The position numbers and the translations under genes were made by a program. A stretch of DNA of 63,763 bases, filler included, from Hausera hauseri (Eukaryota), in NCBI GenBank assembly GCA_046269625.1. It is 10 parts of 10 records of this genome, joined end to end, with 100 filler letters (N's around TTAATTAATTAA, not from the genome) between each part and the next. Parts side by side here need not be neighbours in the genome. Positions count along the whole stretch, not along the records: positions 33,617 to 38,574 come from JBJURY010378925.1; 9 more parts are not named here. The stretch is one strand, 5' to 3'. Numbering within the stretch: position 1 is the first letter of the stretch; every line of letters begins with the position of its first letter. The notes beneath the pieces are model-generated. The model was not told where the DNA came from and ran no database searches. It saw only the letters and a program-made list of their open reading frames with translations. Of the stretch, positions 1,527-56,260 are shown piece by piece.

Positions 1527-1865
1527 AATCGAAAATCGTACGACGACGTTTGTTTATAGTGGATGAGCTCGATTATGCTGTACGGTGTTTTCTCAAGCCA
1601 CTGCCAGCGAATTGCTTTTTGACATATTCAACGATTCCTGGTGTAACGCTTTTTGTTTCTGACAAGGCCTGTTCCTTCAGTGATGGTAAAATCTATTTGT
1701 GTTTATATAGCACGTCCTGTGCTGTTTTTGCTTCCACGTCTCCAACATGCTTCAAGACCGGAAATGCTAAACGTGCCAATGTACGCAACCATGCAGAGCC
1801 ATACTGTTTACCAACGAAATACGACAGTTCATTGCCCAGTTGGGGTTTACTGTAAATGGATATGA
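1527..1865 (-). pseudogene. Polinton small core / amphipathic-helix protein (cupiennin/pVI-like)
   Basis: Minus-strand translation YFVGKQYGSAWLRTLARLAFPVLKHVG...FAGSGLRK...KRRRTIFD: a QxG motif, amphipathic helix and basic tail, located between penton and hexon. Confidence 0.65.
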
Positions 1866-1884: not shown

Positions 1885-2941
1885 GTTGTTGGATTCGACA
1901 AAAATGAAGAGTTAGACTGGTTGTGGTACCGAACGGAAATTCAATAAGGTAGCCCGCGTCATATCAGATATTAATTTCAACATTGTTCATAGATGTTGAT
2001 GCCACAGGTAGGTACATTGTATTATCGAGCTTGACAGTAACATTGTCGCCAGCAGTATACTTGCTGCTTTCCGGATAAATTGCACGGAGTAGCGGTACAC
2101 GTACTCCACCAACCAAAATTGGTTCGGTGACGTTCACGTAAATGTACATTTGGCTTAGTCCCGTTTTCAGTTTGGGTTTGAGTGTTGCAACATCTGCCGC
2201 CGCCGTCGTCATCGATGTCTCAAACCTCTATTTTTCAAAACCCAATACCATGGCCAAAGTTTTGTCCAATGAAATATCAACAGTATCCTTAGCCAGTTCA
2301 AATTTAATGTAACCATTTGTATCTGACTCGAAAACTTTAAATATCGCCTTGTACTTTTGATTTGAAGACGAGTGTTGACAGAGATGTGTTACAGATTCGC
2401 AATAGACATTGTCTCCAATCGATACGTATGCCGTTGACACCCTTTCTGTTGTATAGGTAACTTTCACCTTTGTCTGGTAAAATGCGGGACTTAATCTTGG
2501 ACCAACTACATATTCACTTTTAATATTTTTACCTTTGTACTATGTATTTTTGAATTCAAATTTCTGCGCCATCTCAGAGGACTTAAAGGTAACAGTGAAT
2601 TCAAAATCTGCCATAAAATGTAAGTTTTCGCTTAAAATAAAAACACCGATTTTTGCTTTGGTTGTGCAAATGGCCGATTCTCCAACTGTTATATTATTGT
2701 TAGTAAGTGTCAGAGGACAAGAATGTGTTTTGGTTTCAGTAACAGTCTTGTTGTACGTTATTTTCGTACTACTTTTCAATGTCACCGGTACGTAGGAAAA
2801 GTTTAATTCCGTCAGTACAACCTCCCATTGTGCAACAGATAAATTAAAAGTATTGGTCCAATTTACAACGTATTCACTGGCTGAATTGTTCGTACTAGTC
2901 ATCGGACAACTGTTGCTCAGAAACACCATGTAAATACTCAG
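1885..2941 (-). pseudogene. Polinton minor capsid protein (penton), copy 1
   Basis: N-terminal IYMVFLSNS...N.ASEY...QWEVVLTELNF; C-terminal MYIYVNVTEPILVGGVRVPLLR...YLPV...VEINI...LTLHFRR. Confidence 0.82.
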
Positions 2942-2986
2942 GATCTCGATGATGATGATGATAATAGTGATGATGCAGTTTGTTTA

Positions 2987-4727: not shown

Positions 4728-4827
4728 NNNNNNNNNNNNNNNNNNNNNNNNNNNNNNNNNNNNNNNNNNNNTTAATTAATTAANNNNNNNNNNNNNNNNN
4801 NNNNNNNNNNNNNNNNNNNNNNNNNNN
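4728..4827. other. Artificial contig linker (N run + TTAATTAATTAA + N run); also at 9653-9752, 23625-23724, 28065-28164, 33517-33616, 38575-38674, 51129-51228, 55338-55437 and 59721-59820
   Basis: Nine identical 100-nt spacers containing a six-frame stop palindrome. Confidence 0.97.
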
Positions 4828-9752: not shown

Positions 9753-11480
9753 TGTCCAATCCTTTGGCATACATACAATACGATGAGAGTTCGTGATATT
9801 GGTATGCCGTTGTACTGCTATGTTGAGGACTGGGACTGCATGTATGAACTGGTCTGAGAATGACCTCAAAGTCGCAGTAGATGACAATTGGGACCTTGAT
9901 CTTCTTCTCAAATTCCTTAAATTCGATATAGACCTCTTTGGGAAATTCTGGTCTTACAAAATAATTGCTGTTACAATACATTTTATGCTCCTTCAGCTTC
10001 TCCACAGCTAACTTACCACTAAAATGCGATAAACATCTTTTGCATATTTCGATTCCGTGTTCATGATTTGTTATTTGGGATTTGATTATACGTCTAAAGT
10101 TTTTGATCCAAACATAATGTTTCTCATCACCATCGTCTAGTAGAAGCAGATCCCTATGATCTTCCAATTCATCATCACATATTTGTAAGGGGTAGAATTT
10201 GTCCTCTTCGTCGAATCCAAAGATATTGATGGACATGTTGTTGATGCGGCTGAACTTCTTGATTTCATCTGGACATGGAGGGAATGTGATACACTGAAAG
10301 TCATAGTTGTGTTGGAGATCATTAAATAGCCAAATTCGCTCTGCTGCATGTTTTTTATCCTGTACAAGTTGACATAAAATAGCATACAGGACGCATTTGT
10401 TGTCATTATCATGGGCATTGACGCATGCATTTTTCTGCCGAATCTATTCCGGAAGCTGTATATATAAACTGCCTCGCATGGGGGAATATCTATGCACATA
10501 TATAAGCAGACTCTTGATGGCTGCCAGAGTCCATCCGCTCTTTTTACTCTGGCTCTCATCAGCTTTACGGATCAGCTTCATGTGTTCATCATGCAGCCAT
10601 TCAGCTATATTTGTGCTTTTCAATATAGTCCTATTTTTGGTCTTGAACGCTGTAATTGAATGCTCAGCTGCCACATTGACGTATGTGGCCTCAAATTTCA
10701 TATTAACCTTAAGGGCCTTGAGCTTAGTCATATTGTCCTGGAGGATCCCCTCTGTTTCTTCCTTTACATATTCCAGGAACTTCTTGATGGTTGTTTGTCC
10801 AGCTGCATCAATGACATATTTGCGGACTTTATTATTTAATTCAGCGCCATCAACTTGCAGCTGTTTTTGGCTTTTTGGTGGAACCGCTACACCTGTTGAG
10901 CCTGAAGCATCTGATAGACCTGATGGACGTTTTACTCTTGCGGTCTGTACTGCGGACTGGACAACTGGCCTATGCTCATTAAATATGATCTTGGATTTTG
11001 ATACAAAGTCAGTCAGATGATCCTTATGATCTTCATAGAACTGTATGTATTCCCCATCACATATAGTCTCACATCCAGGGCAAATATAATAAAGGATTCG
11101 ATTGAATTTGTGACCATAATAGATCCTCATGATATTGTGGCAATTCTCGAGGTTATGTATTGTACATATGCAATACATATATATACTGCACCTTTTGTTT
11201 TCTTTTGACACGTTAGACATTGTTGGAATATTGGTATAGAATATTTCTTTTTTCCAATTGACGAAGGATATCAAGTGTTGTTTATGTACGTCGTAGAATT
11301 CCTCATACCCTGTTCAGCACACTACCTCACATGTAGGGCATATATATTATTGGATCCTATTGAACATGTGGCCATAGTATTTGATCATGGTACTATGGCA
11401 GGTTTCTGGATCATGTATTGGAGCCAGACATTCTTAATACAATTTGCACATCTAAAACAAATTATTTGACGACAACAAAT
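9753..11480 (-). pseudogene. Polinton protein-primed PolB, N-terminal region up to Exo I
   Basis: SGWTLAAIKSL...YSPMRGSLYIQLP, NACVN...DNKC, SINIFG, HYVWIKNF, ICKRCLSHF, VIYCDFE, YQYHE. Confidence 0.85.
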
Positions 11481-36819: not shown

Positions 36820-37530
36820 TAATTAAAATGTGCTTCTGCTACACTCTAAATCGGGCTTTTGATACCGGCTTTTTCCTTGTATCCTTGCAACTCAATATTC
36901 ATTTAACACTTTAAACCACCACCACCATCATCACTACCAAGTACATGAGACATTTCGCGACCAATGAAATCAAACAATTTCGTTTTCGGCGCCCGTAAAT
37001 CGACAGATTGCTGTTGCACGGTTGTTTCGTTTAACTTTAAATCCACGTTTAATTGATGCAGCGCATCAGAAAGTTTACCCGAATTTTCACACTAAAGCCG
37101 TTTTACACCATAGCTGTGCTTGGGTGCACATAGAGACATGGGATAATTCAATGAAATCAGTACTGGCGTTTGCAGAAAAGGCATTTCATACTTGCGAAAA
37201 ATTCATTTCGGTAAAAATATCTGTCTTTGGCACGACGGTTTTGATTTTTGTTTATGTATTCCAATCATTGCATTTTGCCTTTTTAGCGTCGTTTTTGCTG
37301 TTGCTTATGATTATTTCTGAGCAAGTTGCTTTTTCGTTTCCAGACAATCGTCACTAGAAGGTTTATCTAATTGTTGGACAGGTTCTGTTTTCGTTTCCAG
37401 CAGTTTGAGATTAGAATTGTCGTTTTTGTAGCCAAACAACTACGACCAATCTGAACTTTCACCATTCGCACAACCATCATCATCACCATCATCATTGAGT
37501 AGAATCGTTTTTCGTCGTCGTCGTCTTCCA
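36820..37530 (-). pseudogene. Polinton accessory gene of unknown function (paralogue B)
   Basis: Frameshifted; C-terminus MNIELQGYKEKAGIKSPI*SV. Confidence 0.35.
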
Positions 37531-37605
37531 TGGCAGTTATGTCTGAATGAGCATGGGAATGGTAGTTATAGTTTGTTGTTGTGGTGCAATGTACATTATT
37601 TTGAT

Positions 37606-38021
37606 TCATAAAACATTTATGTGCTTTTTAATTTGGTTAATAATAAAAATTTTTCTACTGCTAAACACACTGACACAAAGTGGGCGAAACAGTGTCAGTC
37701 TCACTTCAGGAATCTGTTCGGGTTTATACGTATATTCAGTAGTGGCCATTGCTAATTTGTACAGATTGATTGTTTGGTAGTCTAACTGAGCCGTTACCAT
37801 TATTGATTGAATTTGGTCAGTGACAATTCCAAATGGTAGTAGTTTTATAGCTGTGATTGATTTGCGACAATCCATAATACGACACTTTTCCGATTTAAAT
37901 ATAATGCATGTAAAATCCAGTGGACACTTGAGGACATACTGTGTCGGCTTCCATTGATTAAAAGGTAGTGTGTTAATGTCACACTCGGTAACATGTCCGC
38001 GATAGTTGATAATAACTAACA
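37606..38021 (-). pseudogene. TATA-binding-protein (TBP)-like gene
   Basis: Two TBP half-repeats: TCIIFKSEKCRIMDC and IQSIMVTAQL...INLYKL...YKPEQIP...VSVFSSRKIFI, compared with IQNIV...INL..L...YEPEQFP...IFSSGKMVITG. Confidence 0.72.
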
Positions 38022-38119
38022 TTATGGAAACAGTGTTTATACTATAGATATTCATATGTGCGTGTAACACGATTATAAACAAATAATGTGGTGAAGAAAG
38101 GTTGTATTAATATTATTAG

Positions 38120-38574
38120 ATGAATCTGCAGAATGATGCCATTTTCCAGATTGTAGGCCCGTGGAAATGTCAATGAACACTTTGTGTGTAAACTGCTGCA
38201 GAACTACCGTGACATGTTCCATTCACCACGGTACAATCACATATACTGGCATTAGGATGTTGGTGATGATGGTGAGTTCGGTTTGACTCATCGGGAATTT
38301 TGCAAACTGAAATCTATAACGGTAATTGATAGGTCTGATGAGAACTGGTCAGAGAAATTACGCAACGGTGATGTTATTGTCATTCCAGAAATGCGAACAT
38401 CATCGAACAAGAAATCTAAGCGTACACTATTTGGTGTTATTCAAAAATCCCCGTGATTAGACTATCATTAATTATGTTGCACTATAAGCATTTTCTCAAA
38501 ACCGAGCTTGCTTGATAGATGCATATCATGATGCTACGACCGAGTGACACGGATACTTGTTCATTGACTTTACG
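38120..38574 (+). pseudogene. Polinton A32/FtsK-like packaging ATPase, decayed
   Basis: IFQIVGP (broken Walker A), HIYW, DVIVI, then KSP...AYHDATTE*HGYLFIDF. Confidence 0.72.
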
Positions 38575-38674
38575 NNNNNNNNNNNNNNNNNNNNNNNNNN
38601 NNNNNNNNNNNNNNNNNNTTAATTAATTAANNNNNNNNNNNNNNNNNNNNNNNNNNNNNNNNNNNNNNNNNNNN

Positions 38675-38745
38675 TAATTATTTGCGGTTGTAGATCAGTG
38701 ATGTGTGGAAATTATAGGGGGCGGCGTTTCTTTTGAACATACCTG
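38675..38745. mobile_element. Terminus of a Tc1/mariner-type TIR element, followed by TA at 38746-38747
   Basis: GAAATTATAGGGGGCGGCGTTTCTTTTGAACATACCTG is the exact reverse complement of 51043-51080. Confidence 0.85.
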
Positions 38746-38747
38746 TA

Positions 38748-39591
38748 TATAACAGATATTAAAAATGATAAAAAGAAATCAATAAGATGTGAAATAACCC
38801 ACAAGCAACAGTCGTCATGTTGCAATGTTACGAGAGGAAAGATGTACCAGATAAACTACAAATTAATCCGCAAAGAACAAGGAATTGTTTCCAATATACT
38901 AAAGCAGAAAGGTCCAATGATGTACGTAAAATACAAAAATCTTACTAAGTATAAAGATAAACATTCGAAAATCTCGACGCTATCAGTGCACTCCCAATTA
39001 ATTAATAAAACTAAAGAGATGACCATTTTGATCCTACCGTATGCGTCACATTCCCGACCGAAACGGTCCATCTGGGAAAACGTAACAATTACACCGACAA
39101 CCACTGCATTAATCATAGCGGTCAAACCTGACCTAGATTTCTTTAAAATAAAATTCACCTGCAAAGTCCAGCAAATGATAGTCGCAACAGGCGTAATTAC
39201 GCCCGATGATTTAATTGTACCTTGCGCAGCCCTGACTCCTGATACAAAATACACCATTACACTTAATCTGTACAACGAAAATAACAAGGTAGTGTCCACA
39301 AAAATCTTGACAGCCTATACAAAAGATACCAAGGAATCAGATTTAATAAAACCACCCAAAAGCAAAATCACACCCAAAATAGTAACTACAAAGAAACCAA
39401 CAAGAGCAATATATACGTATTCACGTATGGAATTAATATTAATAGGTACGATAACCCCTGTCGCACTAACTCTACTAATAATAATCGCGATAAAAGTAAT
39501 TAAGATGAAACGACAACGTCAAAAACCCGGTTGGGTACGCATAGACATGCGTCGCCTAACAAAGCCGCTGGACTCGGATAATCCGAGCTAA
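38748..39591 (+). CDS. C-terminal part of the retroelement polyprotein: Cys-containing beta module, furin site RPKR, FN3-like domain, stalk, TM helix and tail
   Basis: Open from 38749 in the frame of ORF 38842; ALTPDTKYTITL; TM LILIGTITPVALTLLIIIAI followed by KMKRQR; joins 51042 in frame. Confidence 0.8.
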
Positions 39592-42094: not shown

Positions 42095-45000
42095 ATGACA
42101 GGAAATAATGCACCCATAGAGCAGGTGATTCAGTCAAAGGCTGATTTTACCCTGCCAATGAAGAAATTTTCAGGAAAAGAAGACGTGCAAGACTTTATTA
42201 TGGAGTATGAAGTATACTCGAAAAGTTTCGGATGGACTGATCAGCAGCGTGTAGAGAGGCTACCTCTCCACCTAAAAGGGACTGCTCTAGCCATTTATTT
42301 TCAAATGCCTGATGCCGATAAGAACGACTGGAAAGTCGTAAAAGAAAAATTGCCTCAAAAGTTTTTGGTTGACCCTACCGGAAAAGGGAGAATTGAAGAA
42401 TTCATAAGAAGAAGGCAACGTAAAGACGAAACGGTTCAGGAATTTGTATGCGCTTTAGAGAAATTGGCTGCACGAGCATACCCAGATGCAACGACAAGAA
42501 GTAACGCCTTATTGGCCCAATTCCAATATGGATTAGAAGAAAGATTGAGGACAATAATCTCGCAGGCTGACCCATCCACGTTTTTAGAAGCAATAAGAAA
42601 AGCACGTAAAGCTGAGAGAGATGCTGAGTTTTATAGATGGAATAGATTCAGAAATTATAACAATAATAGTTACGATAAACGTAAAAATAACAGCACTCAA
42701 AGGTATGAACGATACGAAAGGAATAGAAGTCCATCCCAAACCTCAGCCACTGAAGCTGAGTCAGATGGAGAAAAGAAAGTAAGATTCAAACTGAGAAATG
42801 AAGGAGAGAAAACATCCTATAAAAAGAAATACCCCAAAAAGGATGGAAGATCATGGCCAAGTATAGATTCAGAAGGAAGATTAAAGTGTTTCAATTGCAA
42901 CAAATACGGCCATATTGCCAAAGCGTGTAGGTCACGAAAAAGAGAACCTATGAAGAGCAACATGAGATATAATAACAATAATAAACCCAAGAAGGACTAT
43001 ACATCAGTTACATCAGACGAATCATCCGATGGAGAATACGAAACAGAAGAAAGTGAATCGGAACGAAAGAAAAAAGAAAGTACTAATTATGTCAATGATG
43101 TATTGTCTCATCGAATGAAGACGCAATTAGCGATGGAATTAAAAGATTATAAGACTCAACAAAAACGGTTGAAAGAAAATAGTATCTGCACAATAGAAGA
43201 TAAGCCTGAAGGAACAAAAACTCGACGAAGTAGGAAGAAGAGTAATAAAAAGATAATCGAAGTGGAATCAAGAGAGACTTCAGTGGAGAAGAGTGATGTA
43301 GAAAAGAAGACAAAGAGAGGACGGAAGAAGAGTTTAATTGGAGAATCAACCTCGGAAGAAGGAGAAGAAGAAAGTAAACCGGTAAAAATATTTGATGAAA
43401 CAGTGATGGAGCAGGTAATCCAAAGAAAAGAAGTTGACTTAGATGCTGACGATGAAATTATCGAAGCTATAGTTGCTATTAACCCCGAAAACGTCGAAAT
43501 AGATGGAGCAATAAAAGCCTTACTGAAATTAATAAACAGTAATGTATCAGCAAATAAATTAAACGAAATATTATTTCAATTATTGTTACTTGCGCATGAC
43601 ACCAGCCCAGTTCGAGACATAGCACGAACGATACTAGCTAAAGCAGCAGAAGCAGAGATAGGAAAAAGTGAATTTATCAGAATAACTTTAAAGGAAGGAA
43701 ATCAAGACCTGAGAGTAATCCGGATGAAGGAAAATGACGACATAGAGACCCTACGCGAGAAAATCGTAGAATTAGAACCGGATTATAGAGAAAAACTGTA
43801 CGGATTAAGTTTCTATGGAAGAACGCTATATAGTTATGACAACTTGTTACGGATAGGCATTAGAAACGAAAATTATAATCCCATTACCATTACTCTAGTG
43901 GAGATTCACCCGGACGCCAGAGCTGAGGTAGTAGCAGATAATATAATTAGAGAACTGGAGCCACCAGAAGAACATTTGCTAGGTGACACTCAAGATGTTA
44001 CAGTTCAGACAGAGGCAAGAAGAAGAGGAAGACCGAAAGGTACCAAGATAAGTGACATCAAGAATAAAAGAGATAGAAATGAAGAGATAGTACGCCGGTT
44101 GTTGTTATCAGGAATAGATATGACGCCAGAGTCAGTAGACATCGACCCGCTAATAAGAACGTTACTAGCAAGATTGCACACCTCATTTGCATCATTCGAT
44201 ATGCAAGTGACAATTCCAGATGAATTATTTCAGTCATTACGAAATTCATTATTGAGAATTAGTAGGCAATTTTACGAAAATATTACGGAAGAAAGAATTA
44301 ATGAATTACACGAACAAGATATTGTAGAAAAGATGTTGGCCTCAGGAGTTACTCGAGAAAAGGTATTAACCGCGGTGTCATACATAATCTATAAAATAAT
44401 TGCCACTAATCACCAAACAGAAAATCTTGAAGAGATTGATCGTAACATCAAGACCATAGTTAAGGTTTTGCGAGATACGCTACAAAACTGGGTTCAATGC
44501 AGAGGAGGTTGGATACCGAGTTTAATGGCTAACACAGCCATAACGGAAATGCCAGACAGACCTTCTGGCTCACCAGCGACCACTCCACTTAACCAAAATG
44601 CTATTAGACAAGGTATAACGAACGTGTCGTTTGTGGAAATCCTTCAACTTCTCTTAATCATGTCCATTTGCGCACCTAATGCTATGGGTATAGTAGCATA
44701 CGACTGCTCAAAGCCGAAAGAAGGACAAAAGTATTCATTTGTTGACCTTGAAAAATGTCCAGAAGCGGACCCAGAACAATTAGTCACTACTACTGGTCAT
44801 CGATATTGGGTTTATCAGGAATCCGAATTTATAAAAGTCAAAATACGAGAATGTTATTTGAAACGATCTTTTTTCCTTTTCAATTGCGCATATTACTCTG
44901 GTAATTCGGCAATAATAGAACCAACTACACCATTTGAGCCTATAATAATATCTCGTGCCGAATGCCAAGACGCTTTTAAAATTGGAACAATAACGGTGCA

Positions 45001-48000
45001 AAATGCACATATACCCGCAGTAAGAAATAGAATAAAATATACTCGAATTTTCCGAGCAGGAAAAATCGACAAAACTAGAGAAGGAACTTGCAAAGGAGTA
45101 GACTATGACGTAGGCGGAACAATCGCACCTAGAACGGTAGCCATTGAAGATTACCAAGTACAATTGAAAGAATATGAAGCGTTGTTTGACTCGCAAACTA
45201 AATTAATGACTACGATGGCTGAGTGTGAATACGATAACGGTGAATGTGACACAGGAGAATCGAAGATGGCTTGGGAAGTATCTACAAAAAAATGCCATTT
45301 AACCTTGCTAAAAAACGGAATATTTAACAAAACGGTAGGGAAATCAACCGATAAAGAGACAACTACGTTTAAGGAAGGAGTAAAGGAAGCAAAAATGACT
45401 GAAGTCGCTACTATAGTGTTCTCAGCAAACCCAGAGGAAATGATGAGATTCAAAATCACAGGCACGCTGAACAAATGTGACGAAGAAATATTTAAAACTA
45501 ATTACAAAGGGATATACTTGTCCTTGAAACAAGTACACGGAGCAAAAGCGAAACTAGACAAAACGGATATAAAGTTAACCCAATATTTCGATAATAAAAT
45601 AGATTTCCTAATCAACTATGTAAGAATGGAAATTAGAAGTCTATACAGGGAAATAATGATGAATGAATGTAAATTAAATTACGAAATTATGCGAAATAAG
45701 ATGGCTCTGGTAATGACTAACCCAGACATGGTAGCCCCGGTAATGCCATTCGGTGATGGAATAATTGGTAGAATAATGGGTGAAATACTAGTAACTATCG
45801 AATGTAAGAAAGTAGATGTCAAATTAAGACCCACGAATATCTGTACTTCAGAATTACCAGTAGAATACCAGAATGAACCGCGTTATGTAATGCCAGTAAC
45901 AAGAATCCTATTGGAAGCCAACGTGAAGCCGACAATTCTTTATAATTGCACTTTTAACATGTCACCAATGTTCAAAATCAATGATAAAAGTTGGATACGA
46001 ATGCCTAATAGAGAAACGATGCCAGCTCCAGAAATGCTTAGCCTAGTAAATCTGCAAAGGAATCATAAATTCGAACCTTTAACGAGTATCCCACAAGGAG
46101 GGATATATACAGAACAAAACTTAGAGGACTATCGGAGAATGATAATGTTCCCACAACAAAGACAACGAGTAATAACAGAATTGACAAAAAGAGTAATGTG
46201 GGACGGAGAAGGATCACCACAATGGGAAAATCTGATGGGAAAAGACTATTTAAAGAAAGTAACGAGAAATATCATGGAGAAGATGTGGGGAAGATTTCTA
46301 TATTTCGGACAAGCAGCTTCAGGATTTTTAGCAATATATTTTATTATCAGTGCCCTACGAACCATATTTACTGCACTGGGAAAAGCATACGGAATTCACG
46401 CTGCAGTAGGATGTTCGTGGAAAATTTTAATAGCTGTAATACCGGCGGTAGCCAGTTGTTTCCTGGCTAACCATGATGCTAAATGGAAAAAGAAGTTACT
46501 TAAAGAAAAGAATAAAAATGTTGAAGATACCTCACCTTACAGCATAATAAATGACAAAAATGATGATGACGATGACGGTAAGGCGGATAACAAGGAATCC
46601 ATTAGTAATAAATACCTTACCAGAATGAAAAGATTTTCGTTAAGACCAAGAAAAAAGAAGTACAAGAAGAAATTACTAACGGACCTGCCACAACTAAATT
46701 CAGCGGACGAATATAATGGACAAATCTGTACATCAACTTCAGCCCCGTATTATGTACAATCTTTGAGATATCAAGACAATAACGGCTTAGAAAGAAGAGA
46801 AACGTATCCCATGTATCAAGTGTTGCAAATGAAAAGAAGTTACGACGAAAATTTACCATCTCAGCCTACGTGCAAAACGAATGATAAGAATGCACCAAAA
46901 ACACCTACTAGACCCGAAGTAATGATAGATGTGAACGGATACCCAATGCTTGCGTTAATAGATACAGGATCGACCACAACGATAATGGGAAAAAGTCAGT
47001 TACCACCAAAACTCTTGAGAAAACTAAGGAAACCAACAGAGACACTAGTTAACGTAGGAGCATTTGGCACTGAGGAAGAAATAAAGACTGTCCTAGATGC
47101 CAAAATTAAAATATGTAATCAGATAATTGACCATACCATCAGAGTAGCGGAGAACTTAACGAACGAAATCCTTATTGGATGTGACATTTTAAGTCAATTA
47201 GAAGAAGTCTATATTGATCTAAAAACAAGTCAACTTAGGACGTTTGGCAAGAGAGAATGTGAAGGGTCAGTCACCTTAACAAGAGAAATGGTAATACCAA
47301 GTAGAAGCGAGATAATAACGACCGGAAGAATCCAAGGAAGGAGGGAATTTGAAAATGTGCATTTCGAACCATCATATCAGACAATGGAAAGATATGATAT
47401 TCTAATCGCTCCGCATATCGATAAAATACGAGATGGGAAGATTCACCTAAGAATCTGCAATACTGGGAACAGGAAAATACGATTAAGAAGAAATACTAAA
47501 ATGGGATATATAACGGCAATTGAGGATATATTGACCGGATCCGTCAAAGAAAGTGTTAACTCTATAATTTCAGATGTGGATAAGATTGAGAAAATGATAA
47601 ATAAGAAATTGAGTGATGGAAGACAGAAAGTGGAAACGAAGAAAACCCCAAATCATATTAACTGGGAAGAGAAGTTACAAGAATGTAAAATGTTAAACGA
47701 AGAAGAAAGAACAGCACTAAAACAGCTCCTAGAAAGGAATAATAAGCGGTTTGCTCAAAGTGACTACGACTTGGGATCTATGAACGTAATACGACACTCT
47801 ATTAAATTAAAAGATGGCCAAGATAAACCAATAAAGAAGCGACCTTATAGATTAGCATATGATAAGAAAGAGCAAGCCCGCCAGATTATAAAAGAAATGA
47901 GAGAAAATAAAATAATTCGACCTAGTTGTTCTCCTTGGACAGCCCCGGTAGTAATGGTTAAAAAGAAAGACGGAGCTATGAGATTCTGCATAGACTATCG

Positions 48001-51000
48001 AGCCCTTAACGAAATAACAGAAACGGACACCTATCCGCTGCCCAGAATCGACGAGATCCTAGATAAGTTGCACGGATCAGCTATATTTACAACCATAGAC
48101 CTGCAGAAAGGATACTGGCAGGTAGAGATCAAAGAGGAAGATAAACAAAAAACTGCCTTCTCGATAGGCGAAGGATTATGGGAATTTAATAGAATGCCCT
48201 TTGGATTAAAGAACGGCCCACCAACGTTCCAAAGAGGAACAGAGTTGTTATTATTAGACGCCCCTCATGCAATGGTCTATATCGATGATATAATAATCGC
48301 ATCACCTAGTTTTAGCCAACACTTAAAGGATTTACAAGATCTGTTTGATAGATGTGAAATAATGGGTCTTAAAATTAATCCGAAGAAATGCTCATTCGCA
48401 CAAGAAGAAGTCGACTTTCTCGGACATCGAGTAGATCGATATGGCGTAAAACCATTAGAAAAGTTACTCGGAAAAATTAAAGATTTTCCAAAACCTACCA
48501 CCGTAAAGGAACTACGTCGATTCCTGGGATTAGCCAATTATTATCGCAGATTTATAAAAGATTTCAGTAAAATAGCCAAACCATTATACGAATTACTGAG
48601 AGAGGATCTAGAAAAAGTAATATGGACAGCCGACTGCCAGAATTCATTCGAAACTTTGAAAGAAAAACTGCTAAGCGCTCCAATCTTAATATATCCCGAT
48701 ATGAAGAAATCATTTATATTGGCAACAGATGCAAGTGACTACGGAGTCGGCGCAGTATTATCACAAAAGGGCGAAGATGGAAAAGAACACCCAGTAGCTT
48801 ACGCATCAAGGAAGCTGAATAAGCATCAGAAGAAATATGTGGTTATCGAAAGAGAACTATTAGCCGTAATATTTGCACTAGAAGTATTCTCACCTTATAT
48901 CAGTGAAAATAAACCTGTATTGATATACACAGACCATCGACCATTACAATGGTTAAAACAGCATGAAAACCCAAATAGTAGATTATTACGTTGGGCTCTT
49001 AAACTTCAACCATATACCCTGAACTTCCAGTATAAACCTGGAACGCGTAATGCCAACGCGGATTATCTATCAAGATTACCAGAAAACCAGGAAACAAAGA
49101 AAGCCGTAGTAGCAGCTATATGGAGCATGGACGGATCCATAGAGAAGATAAGAGAGAACCAAAGCGAAGATGCCGAAATAAAGGCCATTAGAGGTTATTT
49201 GATGAATAAAATCGTGCCATCAGATAAAGAGTTAGCACGACACCTAGCTAGATTTAGTGAAGCTTACGAAGAAAAAGAAGGATTCTTGTATTATATTCAC
49301 CAGAACGGGCCCGCATTAGTAATTCCAAAGAAGAATCGAGCGGTATTATTAACCCAATACCATAATGGATTATCGGGAGGCCACCAATCGGTAAGAAAAA
49401 CAATAAATAAACTGAAAAGAAAATATTTTTGGTCTACTATGGTAAAGGACGTACAAGAATGGTGCGATAGTTGTAAACTATGCTTCACCCGTAAAAATAC
49501 GGGCTCAAAATTTAAAGCACCCCTCAAAGTATGGGACAATCCACCAGCACCATTTGAATTCACCGCAATGGATATAACAGGACCTTTACCATTAACACGG
49601 AATGGAAATAAATATATCCTCGTGTTCATAGATTATTTTACTCGATGGGTAGTGGCGATACCTATGCATGATATGAAGGCAGACACAATTGCTGAGAAGT
49701 TCGTAGAAAACATTGTTTTCAACTACGGAGCCCCCAGAATATTACTAACGGATCAAGCCTCCAATCTAACAGGGAATGTCATGCAAGCGATATATGAGAT
49801 CATGCAGATACTGAAATTGAGATCAACGCCCGGACACCCAGAAAATAATGGCATGATCGAAAGATATATCGGAGATCTGAAAAGCAAATTACAGACAGTC
49901 GTAAGCGTCAGACAAGATGACTGGGACGAATATATCAACGCATGTGTTTTCGTAAATCGAACATCAGTACATGAAGCTACCAAAGAAACACCATTTTACT
50001 TAATGTATCTGAGGGATGCCAGATTACCAATCGATTTAGACTTCAACGTAAAACCAACTTCGCATTTGATGGAAGTAGAAGAATATAAACAGCTAATGCA
50101 GGAACGCTTACAATTGGCGTACAAAATAATAAAAGGAAATCAATCGGATTATAAAGACAAATATAAGAAGTACTATGACAAGAAAACAAAGAAGCCGAAA
50201 ATTAAAGTGGGTGATAAAATAATGCTACACGTACCATTGAGCAAGAAAGGAAAGACGTCCAAATTAGATAGACCCTATAAAGGTCCATATGAGGTAGAAA
50301 AAGTGGACTTACCTAACATCTGCATAAAGAAAAATAATGCCACGTTCAAAGTGCACGTGAATAGATGTAAACCTGCAGCTAAAGAAAGCCATCTCAGAGA
50401 AGATGAACAGGAAATAGTGAGAACAATTAGCGAGAAACCAATCGGTAAACAAACCACATATACAAGGGTTAGCATAAAAAACTATTTCATATTTTTAATT
50501 TTTATGCTATTGCCTGGTGCTATAACACAAACAATAGAACAGGAAGCGATGAAATCCATGATATGTCATCTAATATCAATATCAGATGATTCATTACTGA
50601 AAAGTATCAAACATCATATAATATATTCCAAAAAGGGTCAAAAATGTATAAAATTTTACGCTGAAAAACCCTTACCTACCAATTATACCGTAGGAATTCA
50701 AGTAATTCATGAGGAGGATCATAAAGAAAAACTAACTCGACAGAACTACGATTGTGAGCTACATTATGAAACAAATGAAACAGAATGTTTAATAGAAGAA
50801 GCCGGTTTATATAACCTATATTATACGCTCATTAAAAAGCGAGGCAATCTCTATCGGACGCAAGATGCTAAAAAGATGGGTCTAATAAAAATTCTTAACA
50901 AACATGAAATGAATGTCACGCAATTAGATGTAAAAATTATCGAACAAATAACAGCAAAACTGATTGCTTTTAAAAACGGAAGAAGTTGCGTTGAAATAAC

Positions 51001-51076
51001 GACAAGGATAAAATTGGAATATAATCGAAGAATAAACATATACAGGTATGTTCAAAAGAAACGCCGCCCCCTATAA
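42095..51076 (+). CDS. Single-ORF Ty3/gypsy polyprotein: Gag, Ubl, AT-hook, Bcl-2-like, class III-like glycoprotein, PR, RT, RNase H, IN, second ectodomain
   Basis: CFNCNKYGHIAKAC at 42887, RRGRPK at about 44020, NWVQCRGGW at about 44490, signal peptide plus IVAYDC at 44690, TM about 46290-46470, DTGS at 46961, YIDD at 48278, TDASD/TDHRPL, HHCC, DDE core, GPY. The last 11 codons come from the inserted TIR. Confidence 0.95.
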   Translation: MTGNNAPIEQVIQSKADFTLPMKKFSGKEDVQDFIMEYEVYSKSFGWTDQQRVERLPLHLKGTALAIYFQMPDADKNDWKVVKEKLPQKFLVDPTGKGRIEEFIRRRQRKDETVQEFVCALEKLAARAYPDATTRSNALLAQFQYGLEERLRTIISQADPSTFLEAIRKARKAERDAEFYRWNRFRNYNNNSYDKRKNNSTQRYERYERNRSPSQTSATEAESDGEKKVRFKLRNEGEKTSYKKKYPKKDGRSWPSIDSEGRLKCFNCNKYGHIAKACRSRKREPMKSNMRYNNNNKPKKDYTSVTSDESSDGEYETEESESERKKKESTNYVNDVLSHRMKTQLAMELKDYKTQQKRLKENSICTIEDKPEGTKTRRSRKKSNKKIIEVESRETSVEKSDVEKKTKRGRKKSLIGESTSEEGEEESKPVKIFDETVMEQVIQRKEVDLDADDEIIEAIVAINPENVEIDGAIKALLKLINSNVSANKLNEILFQLLLLAHDTSPVRDIARTILAKAAEAEIGKSEFIRITLKEGNQDLRVIRMKENDDIETLREKIVELEPDYREKLYGLSFYGRTLYSYDNLLRIGIRNENYNPITITLVEIHPDARAEVVADNIIRELEPPEEHLLGDTQDVTVQTEARRRGRPKGTKISDIKNKRDRNEEIVRRLLLSGIDMTPESVDIDPLIRTLLARLHTSFASFDMQVTIPDELFQSLRNSLLRISRQFYENITEERINELHEQDIVEKMLASGVTREKVLTAVSYIIYKIIATNHQTENLEEIDRNIKTIVKVLRDTLQNWVQCRGGWIPSLMANTAITEMPDRPSGSPATTPLNQNAIRQGITNVSFVEILQLLLIMSICAPNAMGIVAYDCSKPKEGQKYSFVDLEKCPEADPEQLVTTTGHRYWVYQESEFIKVKIRECYLKRSFFLFNCAYYSGNSAIIEPTTPFEPIIISRAECQDAFKIGTITVQNAHIPAVRNRIKYTRIFRAGKIDKTREGTCKGVDYDVGGTIAPRTVAIEDYQVQLKEYEALFDSQTKLMTTMAECEYDNGECDTGESKMAWEVSTKKCHLTLLKNGIFNKTVGKSTDKETTTFKEGVKEAKMTEVATIVFSANPEEMMRFKITGTLNKCDEEIFKTNYKGIYLSLKQVHGAKAKLDKTDIKLTQYFDNKIDFLINYVRMEIRSLYREIMMNECKLNYEIMRNKMALVMTNPDMVAPVMPFGDGIIGRIMGEILVTIECKKVDVKLRPTNICTSELPVEYQNEPRYVMPVTRILLEANVKPTILYNCTFNMSPMFKINDKSWIRMPNRETMPAPEMLSLVNLQRNHKFEPLTSIPQGGIYTEQNLEDYRRMIMFPQQRQRVITELTKRVMWDGEGSPQWENLMGKDYLKKVTRNIMEKMWGRFLYFGQAASGFLAIYFIISALRTIFTALGKAYGIHAAVGCSWKILIAVIPAVASCFLANHDAKWKKKLLKEKNKNVEDTSPYSIINDKNDDDDDGKADNKESISNKYLTRMKRFSLRPRKKKYKKKLLTDLPQLNSADEYNGQICTSTSAPYYVQSLRYQDNNGLERRETYPMYQVLQMKRSYDENLPSQPTCKTNDKNAPKTPTRPEVMIDVNGYPMLALIDTGSTTTIMGKSQLPPKLLRKLRKPTETLVNVGAFGTEEEIKTVLDAKIKICNQIIDHTIRVAENLTNEILIGCDILSQLEEVYIDLKTSQLRTFGKRECEGSVTLTREMVIPSRSEIITTGRIQGRREFENVHFEPSYQTMERYDILIAPHIDKIRDGKIHLRICNTGNRKIRLRRNTKMGYITAIEDILTGSVKESVNSIISDVDKIEKMINKKLSDGRQKVETKKTPNHINWEEKLQECKMLNEEERTALKQLLERNNKRFAQSDYDLGSMNVIRHSIKLKDGQDKPIKKRPYRLAYDKKEQARQIIKEMRENKIIRPSCSPWTAPVVMVKKKDGAMRFCIDYRALNEITETDTYPLPRIDEILDKLHGSAIFTTIDLQKGYWQVEIKEEDKQKTAFSIGEGLWEFNRMPFGLKNGPPTFQRGTELLLLDAPHAMVYIDDIIIASPSFSQHLKDLQDLFDRCEIMGLKINPKKCSFAQEEVDFLGHRVDRYGVKPLEKLLGKIKDFPKPTTVKELRRFLGLANYYRRFIKDFSKIAKPLYELLREDLEKVIWTADCQNSFETLKEKLLSAPILIYPDMKKSFILATDASDYGVGAVLSQKGEDGKEHPVAYASRKLNKHQKKYVVIERELLAVIFALEVFSPYISENKPVLIYTDHRPLQWLKQHENPNSRLLRWALKLQPYTLNFQYKPGTRNANADYLSRLPENQETKKAVVAAIWSMDGSIEKIRENQSEDAEIKAIRGYLMNKIVPSDKELARHLARFSEAYEEKEGFLYYIHQNGPALVIPKKNRAVLLTQYHNGLSGGHQSVRKTINKLKRKYFWSTMVKDVQEWCDSCKLCFTRKNTGSKFKAPLKVWDNPPAPFEFTAMDITGPLPLTRNGNKYILVFIDYFTRWVVAIPMHDMKADTIAEKFVENIVFNYGAPRILLTDQASNLTGNVMQAIYEIMQILKLRSTPGHPENNGMIERYIGDLKSKLQTVVSVRQDDWDEYINACVFVNRTSVHEATKETPFYLMYLRDARLPIDLDFNVKPTSHLMEVEEYKQLMQERLQLAYKIIKGNQSDYKDKYKKYYDKKTKKPKIKVGDKIMLHVPLSKKGKTSKLDRPYKGPYEVEKVDLPNICIKKNNATFKVHVNRCKPAAKESHLREDEQEIVRTISEKPIGKQTTYTRVSIKNYFIFLIFMLLPGAITQTIEQEAMKSMICHLISISDDSLLKSIKHHIIYSKKGQKCIKFYAEKPLPTNYTVGIQVIHEEDHKEKLTRQNYDCELHYETNETECLIEEAGLYNLYYTLIKKRGNLYRTQDAKKMGLIKILNKHEMNVTQLDVKIIEQITAKLIAFKNGRSCVEITTRIKLEYNRRINIYRYVQKKRRPL

Positions 51077-51128
51077 TTTCGTCGCAAATGGAAACGCCAC
51101 CCATAAAATTTCATCGCAAATGTTAACG
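51043..51128. mobile_element. Other terminus of the Tc1/mariner-type element, preceded by TA at 51041-51042
   Basis: CAGGTATGTTCAAAAGAAACGCCGCCCCCTATAATTTC. Confidence 0.85.
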
Positions 51129-55437: not shown

Positions 55438-56260
55438 GCTGTAAAAACCATCCTTGGGTGGTAATGAGGACTCATCCAGTGTTTCCCATGATGTTATATA
55501 ATCATAGGGAAACACTGCTTTCCTTTTAACCAGGTCAAAGGTATCCGGAAAGAATTGCTTCGTTTCCTTGAGTTCTTTGACAGGCAGGTTCTTCACTAAA
55601 CTATCCCGTAAAGATGACATGAATCTGAAACTATTGATGAAACAAAATCGGATTTTACCAGCATGCTTAGTGAAAGTGATATATTTTTCCTCACTGTTGG
55701 GGATCACCTCAATGTTTACTTCAATGTTGCCTAATTCTCGGAATATGAAGTGGCTATCATAGCCACTAAGATTATGAAACACTAGATTGCAGTTGTTACA
55801 TGCTGCGCCACGATATGCACCTTAACTTTCCAATTTTCCTTGATGAAGGACTTTTCGCACAAGTAGCATGATGCTGCCTTGTGCCATTATTGTTCTTGCA
55901 TCCAAGACATGCTCATGTCGTCCTTATGTTGTTGTAGAATCCTTTGAAGATTATGAGCCATGTCTTCAAATCTCTTCATGAAATGTGCTGCTGCATCTGG
56001 ACCCCTGAATAGATATGGTGCATTGTCCAATTCTTTGGCATACATACAATACGATTAGAGTTCGTGATATTGGTATGCCGTTGTACTGCTATGTTGAGGA
56101 CTGGGACTGTATTTGTGAACTGGCTTGAGAATGGCCTCAAAGTCGCAACAGATGACAATTGAGACCTTGATCCTCCTCTCAAATTCCTTAAATTCGATAT
56201 AGTCCTCTTTGGGAAATTCTGGCCTTACACAATAATTGCTGTTTCAGTACATCTTGTGCT
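55438..56260 (-). pseudogene. Polinton PolB exonuclease region with an endonuclease VII-like Zn insertion
   Basis: CDFEAIL, CYLC...YRGAACNNCNL, FHNLSGYDSHF, EEKYITF, SFRFM, RKAVFPYDY; overlaps 9753-9990 in sequence. Confidence 0.88.

Follow-up and report, generated by a model that had tools for sequence, protein, structure and literature searches.

The window analyzed here, a stretch of 63,763 nucleotides of joined contigs from Hausera hauseri, contains a compact TBP-like gene that belongs to a family carried by Polintons. We consider it probable (roughly 60%) that in intact elements the product is the element's own late-gene initiation factor, reading the box (C/T)ATAAACA upstream of the genes for virion formation. 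This is the best reading because the TBP matches are strong, the gene is linked to Polinton genes in other copies and the search for an upstream motif was positive. It rests on correlation (linkage plus upstream motif), with DNA binding and late timing both putative, and to that extent the idea of an element-specific initiation factor, possibly for late genes, put forward in the first-pass annotation of this DNA is supported. The window copy is itself a fossil and is of value in leading to the family.

A degenerate TBP-like gene among Polinton remnants

The gene lies on the minus strand of the contig at positions 33617-38574 (JBJURY010378925.1). Its open frame (37606-38055) would give 149 aa from the ATG at 38055 and 138 aa from the one at 38022, the start used by relatives, so that the gene is placed at 37606..38022. 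The ORF matches Pfam TBP (PF00352) at an E value of 3.9e-6 (27.1 bits against a cut-off of 22.9), and a PDB search returned two archaeal TBP chains, with Sulfolobus TBP (1mp9) at 1.2e-7. The Pfam match covers the C-lobe only, and the N-lobe searched alone against Pfam gave no match; both lobes are evident from an hhalign profile alignment to cellular-type TBPs (probability 99.4) and from the two-lobed predicted fold of an intact relative, P0002. With such strong matches, the protein of about 140 aa with two TBP half-repeats described in the first pass stands. Used as a single query, the ORF retrieved two proteins, P0001 and P0002, at about 65% identity. At 10 of the 31 columns kept in at least 90% of 120 listed relatives the window copy deviates (median 1 and maximum 6 among those relatives), and about 11 residues are missing near its C terminus, for which reasons we regard this copy as probably in decay, though its reading frame has stayed open, and likely no longer functional.

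Divergent from this gene is the remnant of an A32-type packaging ATPase (38120..38574, plus strand), which carries frameshifts and stops and is cut by the assembly gap at 38575. Its three-frame translation is broken, tblastn to the ATPases of relatives gave matches in three frames (E values down to 4e-22), and the cluster representative of this ATPase matches Pfam Pox_A32. Between the ATGs at 38022 and 38120 there are 97 bp, in agreement with the head-to-head arrangement at about 100 bp noted earlier. This interval holds two copies of TATAAACA. The first (38074..38081, plus strand), which begins 46 nt before the ATPase ATG, is a putative late promoter. The second (38034..38041, minus strand) is 19 nt before the TBP-like ATG, which is atypical for the family, (C/T)ATAAAC being present in just 1 of 45 upstream regions of TBP-like genes in relatives; we count this late-type box before the gene itself against the best reading.

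The linkage of the gene to PolB and dUTPase on one contig was likewise confirmed. The dUTPase is an intact ORF of 159 aa (36246..36725, minus strand; Pfam E value of 4.6e-23), a gene for which no homologue was found among the ORFs of 58 related loci. PolB is a frameshifted C-terminal remnant (33620..34239, plus strand; tblastn E value of 1.6e-44 to the PolB of locus L029), and the representative of its cluster, from L052, matches Pfam DNA_pol_B_2. Two further minus-strand remnants are conserved among relatives. One (36825..37202; tblastn E value of 2.5e-8) belongs to a neighbor gene (clusters C1, C13 and C15) present in 34 of the 58 related loci and preceded in the window by CATAAACA at 37249-37256. 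This neighbor family had no Pfam, PHROG or PDB match, its clusters are weakly joined by hhalign (C1 to C13 at 4e-4 and C1 to C15 at 5e-5, with C13 and C15 not joined), and it presumably resembles SSB. The other (35691..36142; tblastn E value of 1e-17) is a Polinton accessory gene, cluster C4, which has no Pfam match and which we label DEDD-nuclease/Maelstrom-like by assumption. PolB and ATPase remnants are the only Polinton core genes on this contig. Its whole length, TBP gene included, is matched by many diverged contigs in two public runs (28,729 and 1,223), as expected of a multi-copy element.

A separate contig (1..4727, minus strand) holds Polinton-type remnants recognized by tblastn, namely an integrase, two putative minor capsids, a core-like gene, a putative major capsid and a protease, with TATAAACA at 1551-1558 (minus strand) before the major-capsid remnant. 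It comes from the same kind of element as the TBP-bearing contig, though not necessarily from the same copy. Further PolB N-terminal remnants were seen at 9753-11313 and 55438-56260, 92% identical over 237 nt. The contigs of the window are short and full of mobile-element pieces, and are joined at 4728, 9653, 23625, 28065, 33517, 38575, 51129, 55338 and 59721 by gaps made of 44 N, a 12-base spacer (TTAATTAATTAA where read) and 44 N. Since these linkers join separate contigs, adjacency across them is no evidence of linkage.

The contig at 38675-51128 is of another kind. It has a single ORF of 2993 aa (42095-51076, plus strand) that encodes, in this order, gag, a Bcl-2-like stretch (weak, E value of 8e-4, below the cut-off), a Monjiviricetes-type fusion glycoprotein (1e-88) and protease-RT-RNase H-integrase, so that an envelope gene is placed between gag and pol within one frame. 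Two unassigned ORFs are found upstream of it. The contig has no direct repeats of 25 nt or longer, and a perfect 43-nt inverted repeat is found near both ends (38708-38750 and 51038-51080).

Genomic context and predicted structure of the compact TBP family

A metagenome scan for the compact TBP yielded 58 loci (L001-L058), many of them near-copies from few assemblies. A core Polinton gene is present in 24 of the 58 and in 10 of the 12 loci of at least 4 kb, whereas 34, mostly short, have none, and thus the linkage of the TBP-like gene to Polinton genes holds in other copies as well. All but one of the 24 rest on clusters with a Pfam-matching representative (A32 ATPase, rve, adenain-like protease or PolB). 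PolB, rve integrase, A32 ATPase and protease occur together in L007, L029 and L059, and the compact TBP gene is found inside the near-complete Polintons L007, L029, L052 and L059. For the major and minor capsid (C9 and C12; in Polintons a double and a single jelly-roll, respectively), core-like, PW-like and Maelstrom-like clusters Pfam gave no match; we use these labels as assumptions resting on gene order. Scans of viral contigs gave no match for the TBP-like gene, the ATPase or the capsid, and neither did a phage collection searched with the capsid. In L002, L007, L011 and L025, a GT donor-like site is found at the end of cluster C8, and a pyrimidine tract plus AG precedes the start of C1, for which reason C8 and C1 may be exons of one gene.

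Gene order was compared in the 17 loci that have both TBP and ATPase. Fourteen are in tandem with TBP first, one is in tandem in the reverse order and two are divergent, with other genes in between. A conserved head-to-head bidirectional unit was therefore rejected, and the order seen in the window is incidental, given that just 2 of 17 loci in relatives are divergent.

The family is large and conserved. A profile built from 7 close rows matched 315 proteins at E values of up to 1, and the 120 listed among them have a median length of 150 aa and are mostly 44 to 58% identical to P0002. The clusters reached by a full HMMER search numbered 59 at E values of up to 1e-30 and 737 at up to 1e-10, the latter including cellular TBPs. 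All 7 close members match Pfam TBP, the best at 1.9e-17. Over 56 locus pairs (only those more than 60% identical with dS of 0.05 to 2, and not independent of each other) the median dN/dS was 0.185, and the family is under purifying selection.

As a stand-in for the window copy, the fold was predicted for the intact relative P0002. The AlphaFold2 model, made with an alignment of 121 rows, has a pLDDT of 97 and a pTM of 0.86. Foldseek gave 44 matches at E values of up to 0.001, of which all 41 listed are TBP, and VIA-align superposed residues 1-148 on human TBP 164-337 with a Z of 14.0 and an rmsd of 2.7 over 146 residues, the best non-TBP match having a Z of 6.9. No helix of 4 or more residues is found in positions 1 to 83 of the model, and the C-lobe has both helices, so that the compact TBP is predicted to be a saddle whose N-lobe lacks both. 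The stretch of helix 2 measures 21 residues in P0002 against 33 to 34, over the same columns, in seven rows labeled cellular-type by their sequence rather than by record name, and the N-lobe linker of the family has a median of 18 residues with 2 prolines.

At the DNA-binding face, three of the intercalating Phe columns are invariant in the 120 listed relatives, and the first, Phe in the cellular-type rows, is Pro in 117. In place of the Val, Val/Ile, Thr, Asn, Ile and Leu found in most cellular-type rows, the corresponding columns of the family mostly have Asn, Arg, Met, Ser, Arg and Asn; from TBP-DNA structures, we take these recoded polar or basic columns to face DNA. The four-Phe set of a canonical cellular TBP is thus incomplete in the alignment, and its N-lobe helices with the basic patch are missing in the model. 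The first stirrup glutamate is kept in 116 of the 120 relatives (D in the other 4) and the second in all 120. According to the available sections of PMC7221094, these glutamates contact TFIIB, the first of them is conserved in only about 40% of viral TBPs, and the basic patch of N-lobe H2 binds TFIIA, Mot1/BTAF1, Brf1/2 and TAF1. With the C-lobe TFIIB-contact pair retained, binding of TFIIB by the family is predicted.

In a quick unrooted tree of the 106 two-lobed rows (out of 154 given), with its base left open, a branch with an SH-aLRT of 100 separates 93 compact-family rows from 7 rows of cellular type and 6 of L065 type. Most short forms fall in a 57-row clade (96), beside longer forms with a helix-length linker. 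The tree fits a stepwise loss of the N-lobe helices, the longer forms being known from sequence without genomic context. The best single-lobe scores are tied between archaeal TBP (45.3 bits) and microsporidian TBP (45.2 bits), a tie that, together with the open base, singles out no donor. A second type of TBP was seen in another Polinton, L065, where a full-length TBP of 177 aa with both repeats (2446-2976, minus strand; Pfam E value of 1.7e-33) sits between the ATPase and the putative capsid. Six proteins of this type were found, that of L065 included, which group with cellular-type TBPs apart from the compact family; no (C/T)ATAAAC was found in the L065 locus.

A shared box upstream of late-class genes

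The motif was first spotted by eye and then counted in the 100-nt upstream regions of the same loci, near-copies included, after removal of those that fell short of 100 nt, lacked an assignable start or had the same last 40 nt as another. This left 45 regions of TBP-like genes from the 58 loci, with 15 of 17 for the ATPase, 8 of 9 for the putative major capsid protein (MCP), 11 of 12 for the PW-like gene, 11 of 15 for C4, 5 of 8 for the protease, 7 of 8 for the minor capsid, 6 of 6 for the core-like gene and 8 of 11 for the integrase. ATAAAC in the sense orientation was present before 15/15 ATPases, 11/11 PW-like genes, 10/11 C4, 5/6 core-like genes, 3/5 proteases, 4/7 putative minor capsids and 4/8 integrases. 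It was also found before 8/8 putative MCPs, the kind of motif shared upstream of capsid genes that the first-pass annotation had suggested looking for. The antisense count was 0 in all gene classes, compared to shuffle means of 0.4 to 1.5. Before TBP-like genes the motif was at chance (4/45, shuffle 3.2), and a TATA plus TCAYH pattern was found instead in 19/45 (shuffle 2.0). The remaining 26 lack this TATA-plus-initiator pattern, which we count against the best reading.

Within 71 late-class regions, the main box variants were TATAAACA (42 sites), CATAAACA (11) and TATAAACG (6), the last of which we take to be the C(-25) variant of the adenovirus box. Position 7 prefers C, with 47 TATAAAC and 14 CATAAAC versus 8 TATAAAT, 3 TATAAAA and 2 TATAAAG. 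The median distance from box to ATG was 37 nt (43/45 regions), not far from the 43 nt between host-type TATA and ATG (27/56 early-type regions), with TATA and initiator about 30 nt apart in the early-type regions. There are thus two upstream architectures, a deviant box before late-class genes and a host-type TATA plus initiator that tends to precede TBP-like genes, "early" and "late" being classes inferred from gene function only. Another sequence, TGTTT(A/T)A, was seen in 20 of the 45 upstream regions of TBP-like genes (L001-L058), mostly 43 to 64 nt before the ATG and largely exclusive of the TATA-plus-initiator type (both in 3 regions); it is possibly a second promoter type or a feedback site.

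With regard to the genes on either side, gene ends that precede a late-class gene have the box nearby in 57 of 75 cases. Of the other ends, many of them followed by unclassified ORFs, 29 of 121 have it. No box was found at the 9 C4 ends that precede a TBP-like gene. At late-class gene ends with no annotated late gene behind them it was present in 6 of 22, and this is counted against the best reading.

As a contrast we used a blind set of 19 loci (L059-L077) picked by ATPase pattern alone, 15 of which were confirmed as ATPase. One of them, L059, has the compact TBP and also the box at no more than 130 nt before 7/7 genes. In the other confirmed loci the box precedes 1 of 35 genes, a count that omits 6 rows (no usable start or spurious match) and two TBP genes, and the absence of TBP there refers to contigs that are partial, with some starts unsure. 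The contrast is one of co-occurrence rather than proof, because of the partial contigs and unsure starts and because L059 is kin to the first set; as it is the single positive, gene and box may simply be co-inherited. The 15 confirmed ATPase-motif matches were found in prokaryotic genome bins and are Polinton-type ATPase contigs, and the L059-L077 Polinton contigs are probably eukaryotic DNA binned into MAGs. In L062 and L076, GTATAAGA was spotted by eye about 40 to 60 nt before the PW-like ATG; no TBP match was found in their contigs and genome bins.

Proposed mechanism, alternatives and comparison with known systems

If the compact TBP is the element's late-gene factor, its gene would be transcribed early by host TFIID and Pol II from the host-type TATA plus initiator. 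The protein, whose DNA face is more polar and keeps three of the four Phe columns, would then bind the (C/T)ATAAACA box located some 37 nt upstream of the start codons of the ATPase, capsid, core, protease and PW-like genes. There, the C-lobe glutamate pair that it has kept would recruit host TFIIB and thereby Pol II, and the loss of the basic N-lobe helix would free it from Mot1/BTAF1, TAF1, TFIIA and Brf1. The outcome would be a one-protein early-to-late switch. To our knowledge, Polintons encode no RNA polymerase.

The main rival to this reading, which we think unlikely, has host TBP recognizing the box, as a weak version of TATA that becomes active only once the genome has been amplified. 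The TBP-like protein would then have another role, for example as a decoy that ties up host TFIIB or sits on the TATA boxes of the host. Such a decoy would also need the TFIIB-contact glutamates, which are essentially invariant (116 E plus 4 D; 120 E), and the Pro in the first Phe column of the N-lobe could weaken DNA binding. Host TBP has also been crystallized on the C(-25) variant, going by the available part of the 1qn3 record, which favors this rival. However, the columns facing DNA hardly vary within the family and have a new, more polar composition, suggesting that a specific sequence has been selected for. In addition, position 7 of the box is preferably C in late-class regions, early-type genes have canonical boxes, and the box is nearly absent (1/35) from Polintons where the TBP-like gene was not found.

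It is less probable still that the protein reads the box only within a larger viral complex, comparable to the herpesvirus vPIC or the TBP-TFIIB pairs of NCLDVs, and not with host TFIIB alone. Viral TBPs mostly co-occur with a viral TFIIB-like protein (PMC7221094, accessible text), but no Pfam TFIIB match was found in 50 representative ORFs, 45 of them from related, incomplete loci and the set including the long ORFs of the near-complete L052. Several neighbors with no family match, one of which is present in 34/58 loci, could supply such a partner, although the stirrup is host-like, in contrast to the conservation of about 40% reported for viral TBPs in the available sections of the same paper.

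The Forkhead consensus is RYAAAYA, which ATAAACA matches. That the box is a host Forkhead site, or else a 3'-end or polyadenylation signal, in either case unrelated to the TBP-like gene, appears very improbable. These readings are disfavored by the strand bias (ATAAACA sense 52 and antisense 0 in 71 regions), by the lack of GTAAACA on either strand and by the fixed spacing. In tandem arrays the box is often near the end of the upstream gene (57/75), as a terminator would be, but it tracks the downstream gene (0/9 C4 ends before a TBP-like gene), and in the window it sits between divergent genes, where no gene ends. Finally, a host TBP paralogue or retrocopy lying by chance beside Polinton debris, as the degenerate window copy, the fragmented assembly and the 34/58 mostly short loci with no core Polinton gene might suggest, is largely refuted by the genomic context of relatives (the gene lies within near-complete Polintons L007, L029, L052 and L059), with the SH-aLRT of 100 separating the family from cellular-type TBPs and the many diverged contigs that cover the TBP-bearing contig, gene included, in two runs also against it.

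Extended beyond single elements, the late-gene factor reading becomes a broader proposition to which we give somewhat less than even odds: that a widespread Polinton lineage runs an early-to-late program in which host Pol II is brought to a promoter of the element's own, (C/T)ATAAACA, by one TBP of 150 aa that lacks the host-regulation surface but has kept the part that TFIIB binds, while other lineages captured or kept a TBP separately (L065) with other boxes. The conserved pair of factor and box marks the morphogenesis genes as one regulon, which bears on virion formation and gene timing in animal Polintons, and reduces the early-to-late question to one small protein and an 8-bp site. Being predicted to form a saddle without N-lobe helices and being under purifying selection, the compact TBP is also a natural deletion experiment on the surfaces that initiation can spare. 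If true, the proposed early-to-late program would use the smallest known viral initiation system, would give direct regulatory evidence of a productive viral cycle in these "transposons" and would offer an orthogonal TBP-promoter pair usable in eukaryotic cells.

The elements share with Polintons, Mavericks and adintoviruses the PolB, rve integrase, A32 ATPase and adenain-like protease, and, in related loci, capsid genes that are putative. The accessible text of PMC8502044 does not discuss TBP as a Polinton gene, that of PMC11161782, PMC10748475 and 10.64898/2026.06.19.733378 has no TBP or TATA, and one supplement of Starrett et al. gave no TBP match. Figure 5 of Starrett et al. 2021 (PMC8502044; preprint 10.1101/697771) does mark a "TBP" in one or more MELD viruses or related elements whose PolB is adintovirus-like; it is a label only, the available text giving no family, structure, promoter motif or mechanism, and identity with the compact family is not implied. 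Apart from it, no prior description of the family or the box was found in the open-access literature covered. A viral TBP with a private late promoter is already known as a kind, and was found in print for Polintons only as a figure label.

With cellular TBPs (eukaryotic TBP/TRF and archaeal TBP; PF00352) the compact form shares the two-lobed saddle (Z of 14), a complete C-lobe, the stirrup glutamates and three of four Phe columns. It differs in being about 30 residues shorter, in missing the N-lobe helices in the model, in having Pro in the first Phe column and in several DNA-facing columns that are polar or basic, at an identity of 20 to 28%. The TBP-like proteins of NCLDVs (phycodnavirus, mimivirus, ASFV B263R and poxvirus factors; PMC7221094, available sections) likewise have a TBP fold in which the regulatory surface of the N-lobe is eroded. 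Structural matches to them by Foldseek reach an E value of 2.5e-7 at only 8 to 21% identity, weaker than to cellular TBP; a viral TFIIB accompanies most of these proteins, and their stirrup glutamates vary (PMC7221094, same sections). In general, viral TBPs mostly operate together with a viral TFIIB or with additional viral factors, according to the accessible parts of PMC7221094 and PMC12529657, which we count against the best reading.

In beta- and gammaherpesviruses, which are nuclear DNA viruses, the vTBP (KSHV ORF24, EBV BcRF1 and HCMV UL87) mimics TBP at a TATT late box and uses host Pol II (PMC12529657, available text). Common to both systems are a deviant TATA box for virion genes, host-type early promoters and a polar DNA face, features that in Polintons we infer from sequence. 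The large multidomain ORF24 makes direct contact with Pol II, is predicted to be incompatible with TFIIB and needs five other viral factors (PMC12529657, same portion), whereas in the compact protein, of about 150 aa, the TBP fold spans the whole chain and the TFIIB glutamates are kept. The late box is (C/T)ATAAACA in Polintons and TATTWAA in herpesviruses, and BFVD matches of the compact TBP to herpesvirus proteins are weak (E value of about 3e-3) and, as far as tested, not orthologous. As the large Pol II-binding part is absent and the TFIIB site kept, the compact TBP is not a member of the herpesvirus system; the herpesvirus vTBP with its TATT box is its closest working analogue.
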